DNA of 64,000 bases, taken from assembly GCF_003334405.1 (NCBI RefSeq), contig NZ_QOWM01000002.1. The stretch is one strand, 5' to 3'. This document shows positions 53,692 through 54,065 of this stretch, piece after piece. The position numbers and the translations under genes were made by a program. This stretch comes from Escherichia coli. Lineage in GTDB: Bacteria > Pseudomonadota > Gammaproteobacteria > Enterobacterales > Enterobacteriaceae. The notes below the pieces were generated by a model. The model searched no databases, was not told where the DNA came from, and saw only the letters and a program-made list of their open reading frames with translations. Every line of letters begins with the position of its first letter. The stretch's first letter is position 1.

Positions 53692-54065
53692 TGTGCAATA
53701 TTCTCCAGCCAGGGGTTATTAAAATGAGGACCTGGTCTCATTTAAAAATAAATGACTTCATTGGGTGAAATAAGAATGTCAGGAGTTTAAACGCAGAAAT
53801 GTGATCAATGTCAATCATTTCAGGGATTGCAGTGCCGCCCGGTAAGGTAAAGCGCAAATCTGTGCTTTAGCGCGCAACCTTATGTGCATATGCTCAAAAT
53901 AATATTTAAATAGTATTAATTAAATTAGCATTTGCACAATGATTATTATTCTCGCGCTGCTTATACTAATTCCCGAGTTCATTGTCGTTACGGCATAAAT
54001 GAAACTCATAAATAACACCTTCCCCATAATAATAAAAATCAGCATAAGTACCCGAGGTAAATAAA

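Follow-up and report, generated by a model that had tools for sequence, protein, structure and literature searches.

The garD-garP intergenic region of Escherichia coli as a divergent control region with CRP and candidate CdaR sites at conserved spacing

Results

The garD-garP locus and its published regulation

In the window (the whole 64-kb stretch of E. coli DNA analysed here), a minus-strand open reading frame (ORF) of 523 aa (52120-53691) and a plus-strand ORF of 444 aa (54066-55400) form the garD and garP sides, respectively, of one shared gap, which the two start codons face (garD ATG at 53691, minus strand; garP ATG at 54066, plus strand). RefSeq names the divergently transcribed genes of K-12 MG1655 garD (galactarate dehydratase) and garP (galactarate/glucarate/glycerate transporter), and gives garL, garR, garK and rnpB as the genes beyond garP. 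The flanking ORFs and the RefSeq names place the gap exactly at 53692-54065, in agreement with an earlier note on this DNA that had described a 374-bp divergent garD/garP intergenic region. The gap showed 100% identity to that of MG1655 (window position p corresponds to NC_000913.3 position 3328973 - p), and of 5426 complete E. coli genomes 5418 contained it. No feature is annotated within it in the curated MG1655 record NC_000913.3. In the window, as in K-12, rnpB (RNase P RNA) lies directly downstream of garK on the same strand, at approximately 58380-58760 (positions 10690-11066 of the extracted locus L001).

The same note had called the region long and AT-rich, quoting an AT-rich string that we located at 53914-53955. 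The description was accurate: over its 374 bp the gap had a GC content of 35.8%, compared with 50.4% across the window as a whole. Divergent, activator-dependent promoter regions are usually AT-rich and a few hundred base pairs long, and the garD-garP gap is therefore real but statistically unremarkable. The gap upstream of the E. coli paralogue gudP is longer, at 434 bp (L003 7102-7535).

The regulation of these genes has been described previously. CdaR (SdaR) activates garD, garPLRK, gudPXD and its own gene, with galactarate, glucarate and glycerate as inducers (Monterrubio et al. 2000, J Bacteriol 182:2672, as related in PMC11775122 and PMC8170033), and gar and gud transcripts were reduced in the transcriptome of a cdaR frameshift mutant. 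In reporter assays, PgarP was a CdaR- and glycerate-responsive promoter (bioRxiv 10.1101/2024.05.15.594374). In Salmonella, which has no garP and in which PgarLRK is divergent from PgarD, reporters for both promoters responded to glucarate and galactarate, and PgarLRK responded to glycerate too (PMC11077982). Footprint-seq showed that CRP binds aaTGTGAtcaatgTCAATcat in vitro with a Kd of 1.9 nM at NC_000913.3 position 3275166, which is window position 53807 (PMC12871828), and CRP ChIP-seq in ETEC placed a peak at garP/garD, under which two motifs were listed: TGTGATCAATGTCAAT and TGTGCTTTAGCGCGCA (Haycocks et al., PMC4287617). The CRP binding, the CdaR-responsive PgarP and the Salmonella PgarD and PgarLRK reporters bear out the earlier expectation that the gap holds activator sites for both promoters. 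The gap corresponds to the already known region through which CdaR and CRP control garD and garPLRK, and it is ordinary in kind.

Other regulators have been linked to the locus as well. An FNR ChIP-seq peak was assigned to garP. A weak Fur cluster with one major site of 10.4 bits was listed for garPLRK, and these genes appeared as 'Fur-activated' in arrays, an effect that the authors read as mostly indirect (PMC2189734). RyhB-dependent changes of garP, garL and garD failed verification. The searchable literature yielded no published CdaR operator sequence and no CdaR-DNA binding data.

A core of fixed geometry in 46 species

A GarD-based scan gave 80 loci, with 45 species besides E. coli in which garD and garP were divergent neighbours; across species the gap between them measured 370-525 bp. 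The gaps of the 46 Enterobacteriaceae species (including E. coli) were aligned by MAFFT, and conserved blocks were found to alternate with variable ones. A 231-bp core (53750-53980), extracted by fixed offsets, contained zero indels in 46 of 46 species, and length variation was confined to the two flanking mRNA leaders. The start-to-start offsets between the elements of the core were constant, at 61 bp from the CRP site to box A, 22 bp from box A to box B, 41 bp from box B to box C, and 37 bp from box C to TTATACT. The spacer between boxes B and C had low information content and contained no indels in the 46 species; as a control in the folding analysis, it gave a z-score of approximately 0. 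The absence of indels from all 46 species implies selection on how the sites of the core are phased along the helix relative to one another. Nearly the full length of the gap is accounted for by the two predicted leaders together with this tightly packed core (Table 1).

Table 1. Features of the garD-garP intergenic region in window coordinates
Feature	Sequence	Position	Strand	Remarks
garD 5' leader (predicted, 75 nt)		53692-53766	minus	Shine-Dalgarno (SD) GGAGAA (53701-53706), 9 nt upstream of the garD ATG (53691)
garD extended -10 (predicted)	TGaCATTCT	53773-53781	minus	Predicted start at ~53766
CRP site 1	TGTGATCAATGTCAAT	53800-53815 (centre 53807.5)		Footprint-seq Kd 1.9 nM (PMC12871828); ETEC ChIP-seq motif (PMC4287617)
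Box A	E. coli, TGTGCTTTAGCGCGCA; most species, TGTGCATCAGCGCCCA	53861-53876		Half-operator-like candidate CdaR site or weak CRP site
Box B	ATGTGCATATGCTCAA	53882-53897		16-bp pseudo-palindrome; candidate shared upstream CdaR operator
Box B-box C spacer		53898-53923		AT-rich, poorly conserved, fixed length
Box C	ATTAGCATTTGCACAATG	53924-53941	plus	Candidate promoter-proximal CdaR operator; overlaps the garP -35 region
Fur-box-like 19-mer	GAGAATAATAATCATTGTG	53935-53953	minus	Overlaps box C and the garP -35/spacer
garP(LRK) -10 (predicted)	TATACT	53962-53967	plus	Predicted start at ~53974
garP 5' leader (predicted, 92 nt)	5' stem-loop GAGTTCAT..ATGAAACTC	53974-54065	plus	SD GAGG at 54054-54057
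21-codon upstream ORF	MKLINNTFPIIIKISISTRGK	53999-54064	plus	Judged fortuitous

The garD promoter and CRP site 1

The predicted extended -10 element of garD carries the key A(-11) and T(-7). Its plus-strand sequence, AGAATGTCA, was near-invariant in the 46 species, and Salmonella arizonae had TGtCATTCT together with the same CRP site. CRP site 1 was near-perfect in most other species (TGTGATCnnnATCACT), and its centre lay at -41.5 from the predicted garD start with a spacing that was constant across the 46 species. Relative to that predicted start, the garD promoter appears to have class II CRP geometry. The garD and garP starts, and with them the positions -41.5 for garD and -42.5 for garP, are predictions, because they rest on predicted -10 elements. 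CRP site 1 also matched the FNR consensus at 8 of 10 positions, which may explain the FNR ChIP signal at garP.

No CdaR-like box was present at -42.5 of garD, and the nearest candidate CdaR site lay approximately 100 bp upstream. We infer the route from CdaR to the garD promoter for this reason. We also considered, and rejected, the idea that box A or box B drives a further garD promoter from -42.5, since inspection of the E. coli and consensus sequences revealed no -10-like hexamer at the required distance.

The garP promoter and the candidate CdaR operators

A sigma-70 consensus scan of the gap found no self-sufficient promoter, and garP had no acceptable -35 element, findings that fit an activator-dependent garP promoter. 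The TATACT hexamer of garP was invariant in the 46 species and kept a constant distance of 37 bp to the beginning of box C, whose centre (53931.5) lay at approximately -42.5 from the predicted garP start. Across species the flanks of box C (TTGAGC...CACAATG) were conserved, whereas in many species its centre was not. In a comparison with related promoters, of the kind that the earlier note had proposed as a check, the element TTGCAC-N24-TAT(A/G)CT was common to the garP, gudP and cdaR promoters. In gudP, for which a leader of approximately 135 nt is predicted, the TATACT hexamer was as far from TTGCAC as in garP, and the 14-mer GCATTTGCACAATG was identical in garP box C and upstream of E. coli cdaR.

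Box B, the most conserved block of the core, had one mismatch to the 16-bp pseudo-palindrome TTGWGCAWWTGCWCAA, which boxes B and C fit in most species. It is an inverted copy of box C (a 12-nt inverted repeat, 92% complementary). Box B was positioned at -84.5 from garP and -123.5 from garD, and box A at -101.5 from garD and -106.5 from garP (all relative to predicted starts); in box A, the TGTGC arm and the GCGCCCA tail were conserved. When up to two mismatches were allowed, TTGWGCAWWTGCWCAA had two matches in the 64-kb window, both inside the gap, with 0.44 expected by chance. The match upstream of cdaR was the sole one in 8 kb of sequence from the cdaR locus, and the motif was also present in Salmonella near garL. 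The cdaR-upstream 16-mer, TTAGGCATTTGCACAA, was found unchanged upstream of Gallibacterium garD, together with TTGCAC-N25-TATAAT. We provisionally assign TTGWGCAWWTGCWCAA to CdaR because it recurs at garP, cdaR, Salmonella garL and Gallibacterium garD. Boxes B and C would then be CdaR operators, and boxes A and B would be shared upstream CdaR sites that are possibly also weak CRP sites.

These boxes could alternatively belong to CRP itself, boxes A and B (and perhaps C) being low-affinity sites of a multi-CRP array composed of a class II site and tandem sites upstream of it, with CdaR binding elsewhere or through a less obvious motif. We consider this unlikely. All three boxes begin with TGTGC and have TCA at CRP positions, box B matched the CRP core at 8 of 10 positions, as did the proven CRP site 1, and box A, which matched at 7 of 10, is listed as the second CRP motif under the ETEC ChIP peak (PMC4287617). 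However, the positions conserved in the boxes (C at 5, GC at 10-11 and the GCGCCCA tail of box A) are not those that CRP needs, and the Footprint-seq table, which covers sites with a Kd below 10 nM, contains only one garP/garD site (PMC12871828). The box sequence also occurs beside CRP sites that are separate from it. In the autoregulated cdaR promoter, an identical 14- to 16-mer lies at approximately -42.5 next to that promoter's own CRP site, which, as read from the E. coli sequence, is distinct, better and 39 bp further upstream of the cdaR box; CRP binding upstream of cdaR has been reported with the site sequence not given (PMC12871828 among the sources). At Gallibacterium garD the same box again follows a separate consensus CRP site, TGTGATCTCTATCACT (locus L082, 2738-2755 and 2831-2846). 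We therefore retain the assignment of TTGWGCAWWTGCWCAA to CdaR as the preferred reading.

Two further sequences related to the boxes were noted. The region upstream of garD in Gallibacterium (Pasteurellaceae) contained a further palindrome, TTAGGCTAATGCCTAA, similar to the sequence that takes the place of box B in E. coli gudP and in Salmonella garD. In E. coli, the box C 10-mer TTGCACAATG (53932-53941, plus strand) was repeated exactly at the garD translation start (53689-53698, minus strand), where it reads ...ATTGCACAATG and includes the ATG. This repeat may represent a CdaR half-site over the garD translation start, but it is probably a coincidence, because other genera carry CTGGACAATG there in place of TTGCACAATG.

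The Fur-box-like 19-mer matched the classical 19-bp Fur box, GATAATGATAATCATTATC, at 15 of 19 positions, better than any other stretch of the 64 kb. A site of this quality fits the weak garPLRK Fur cluster of PMC2189734, and Fur would probably bind at exactly 53935-53953. The segment is not conserved outside Escherichia, and the garP-overlapping site compares with the classical Fur box as a weak, Escherichia-limited one.

The garD and garP leaders

Next to the garD start, positions 53692-53710 were at least 80-90% conserved in the 46 species. The length of the garD leader was 40-117 nt by pattern estimate, and 47-102 nt where the -10 pattern was correctly placed. A 22-bp near-palindrome, AAATGAGGACCTGGTCTCATTT, with the arms AAATGAG and CTCATTT, was observed in the E. 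coli garD leader at 53722-53743; no T-run follows it on either strand. Its arms were kept in E. albertii around a different centre and were absent from other genera. This element may form a hairpin in the leader RNA of garD or serve as a site for a protein. A 19-nt direct repeat of 79% identity was also present (53709-53727 and 54051-54069), such that the SD and start region of garP, CCCGAGGTAAATAAAATGA, resembles the plus-strand sequence CCAGGGGTTATTAAAATGA within the garD leader. The latter copy is antisense to garD, opens a 14-codon ORF and lies in an Escherichia-specific, non-conserved segment.

The garP leader contained a pyrimidine block (54016-54025) followed by a conserved A-rich, (ARN)n-like run (54026-54039), and its conserved stretches were 54027-54040 and 54049-54058. 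In other species the leader was 91-123 nt long. The A-rich run, ATAATAATAAAAAT, consists of repeated A-R-N triplets located 15-40 nt upstream of the garP ATG, and repeats of this type are bound by the distal face of Hfq or by ribosomal protein S1. Together, the (ARN)n run and the pyrimidine block may mark post-transcriptional control of garP, either by Hfq/sRNA binding or by occlusion of the SD.

The garP leaders of most genera outside Escherichia (L012, L029, L031, L038 and others) carried approximately 20-30 extra nt aligned to about 53990-54010. Within this extra segment were a tandem repeat, ATTACCTG-ATA-TTACCTG, and a hairpin with the arms CCTGAT...ATCAGG, and the corresponding hairpin in Kosakonia, TCTGAT...ATCAGA, showed a compensatory change. 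The hairpin segment of most other genera, approximately 26 nt in length, was lost in E. coli and E. albertii. A different stem was seen in the Kluyvera clade and a few other genera (L017, L019, L026, L030, L011, L048, L051 and L070), where a stem of variable sequence encloses the A-rich run just upstream of the SD (examples are ACCTTAAT/ATTAAGGT, CACCTG/CAGGTG and CATCTG/CAGATG), with z-scores down to -3.2. E. coli retains only its pyrimidine 5' arm, CACCTTCC (54016-54023), which could pair with the SD sequence GAGGT.

When folded against dinucleotide shuffles, neither E. coli leader showed excess stability (z = -0.22 for garP and +0.99 for garD). Likewise, across the 46 species no excess structure was seen in the 3'-terminal 76 nt of the garP leader (mean fold z = -0.07).

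Search for additional products

The earlier note had considered the gap large enough to encode a small RNA or a leader peptide. This suggestion was not supported: annotation, the Rfam scan, the terminator and promoter searches, folding and ORF conservation were all negative. The Rfam scan of 53000-54800 returned only mir-981 (E = 2) and YenS (E = 8.9), and the two hits, at 14.4 and 12.9 bits, fell far short of their gathering thresholds of 51 and 80. In the gap we found no terminator-like site and no additional sigma-70-like promoter, and the searchable literature gave nothing relevant on an sRNA at the garD-garP locus. Thus, of the hallmarks of a small RNA gene (its own promoter and terminator, and an RNA family or structure), of a leader peptide or attenuator (a short ORF that is conserved and has a ribosome-binding site, and terminator/antiterminator hairpins) and of a riboswitch (an aptamer of conserved structure in the 5' UTR), none was found in the gap.

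We consider it very improbable that a separate small RNA, a translated leader or a translated small ORF is also encoded in the gap; three ORFs were weighed individually (53999-54064, 53939-53998 and 53738-53857). The ORF at 53999-54064 ends 1 nt before the garP ATG, an arrangement that would permit translational coupling. However, it has no SD upstream (TGTCGTTACGGCATAA), its ATG is not conserved, and it was missing in another E. coli strain (L084) and in E. albertii; no common upstream garP-leader ORF was found across the 46 species. For the 19-codon hydrophobic ORF at 53939-53998, the frame from a conserved ATG or GTG ran for 13 codons or more before any stop in 41 of 46 species. Its conserved residues (LIILNHDFI), however, are the translation of the conserved -10/start-site DNA, its first codons are variable, stops occur within 5 codons in four species, it lacks an SD, and it is located upstream of the predicted garP start. 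Stops interrupted the 39-codon minus-strand ORF at 53738-53857 in 18 of the 46 species, and where this ORF was conserved it coincided with the CRP site and the -10 element. An additional product would also be favored by the conserved A-rich, (ARN)n-like run at 54026-54039 and by the fact that the gar genes are barely expressed in standard conditions, so that published sRNA and small-protein screens could have missed it. Set against the negative searches, these points do not change our assessment, and the gap sequence gives no sign of a small RNA or leader peptide. A mini-ORF of the Enterobacter clade, MC(P/L/Q)RK, was rejected as a candidate; it shares sequence with the SD and does not occur in E. 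coli.

The variable, GC-rich spacer between CRP site 1 and box A (53816-53857) was weighed in the same way as the possible seat of a conserved hairpin, in the form of an RNA element or of a cruciform that would serve as a transcriptional insulator or 5' stabiliser. Short inverted repeats of differing sequence occurred at a similar place in many species, and the mean fold z-score of the spacer was -0.48, compared with approximately 0 in two control spacers. Nevertheless, z-scores below -1.5 were obtained in only 3 of 46 species, no pair of columns rose more than 0.22 above the expectation for independence, and no consistent helix register was apparent. Stems of 4-6 bp are expected by chance in a 40-nt GC-rich stretch, and no promoter is positioned to transcribe the spacer. 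Such a hairpin is accordingly very improbable.

Discussion

We consider it likely that the garD-garP gap is a compact bidirectional control region in which two outward-facing, activator-dependent sigma-70 promoters are served by CRP at garD and by CdaR at garPLRK, with nothing else encoded. The gene identities, the CRP binding, the CdaR dependence reported in the literature, and the conservation and spacing of the elements form the basis of this model. Its exact starts are predicted, boxes A, B and C are putative CdaR sites, and the action of CdaR on garD is proposed. In this model, garD would be read from the extended -10 element TGaCATTCT, with cAMP-CRP at -41.5 supplying the -35 function, into a leader of approximately 75 nt. 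The garPLRK operon would be read from TATACT into a leader of approximately 92 nt, with CdaR, the diacid-sensing activator, bound to box C near -42.5 in place of a -35 element; the gudP and cdaR promoters would have the same layout as garP. Helically phased boxes A and B would couple induction by galactarate, glucarate and glycerate to both promoters, CRP would impose catabolite control on this two-promoter module, and Fur and FNR would be secondary inputs in E. coli.

A more specific version of the model can be put forward tentatively, at a little under even chances: the CdaR operator is TTGWGCAWWTGCWCAA, and the gap is a rigid 'enhanceosome-like' module, approximately 208 bp from start to start and without indels in 46 species of about 25 enterobacterial genera, in which box B (with half-site A), box C and the class II CRP site jointly drive both promoters.

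The region can be compared with well-known systems. In class II CRP-dependent promoters, such as galP1 or those of the melR type, CRP is centred at -41.5. The garD promoter is similar in that a proven CRP site lies 41.5 bp from its predicted start, but it differs in also needing the pathway-specific activator CdaR. The araBAD/araC, rhaSR/rhaBAD and melR/melAB regions are divergent control regions in which CRP is combined with a specific activator at approximately -42. Like them, the garD-garP region has a shared gap, a proposed activator site over a poor -35 with a decent -10, CRP nearby and helically phased sites. Unlike them, it would have CRP at the class II position of one promoter (garD) and the specific activator at that of the other (garP), and CdaR belongs to the CdaR/PucR-type family and not to the AraC family (PMC4797297). 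Among described systems, the E. coli CdaR (SdaR) regulon promoters (garD, garPLRK, gudPXD and cdaR) are the same locus, with the genes, their divergence and their common induction as described (Monterrubio et al. 2000, via PMC11775122 and PMC8170033); the assignment of the boxes made here is a prediction added to that known system.

The gap has little significance beyond bookkeeping: it is a catabolic control region of textbook type in the most thoroughly studied of bacteria. What the predicted CdaR operator and the rigid architecture add to a known region is modest and would be of interest mainly to biosensor engineers. Biosensors for glucarate or glycerate that combine CdaR with PgarP or PgudP are in wide use, and a defined CdaR operator together with a map of fixed spacings would aid the rational engineering of such sensors. 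The use of glucarate and galactarate matters for the expansion of Enterobacteriaceae in the inflamed or antibiotic-treated gut (PMC11775122, PMC11077982), and knowledge of the cis-logic of the region (CRP, CdaR and Fur/FNR) would aid the reading of in vivo expression.
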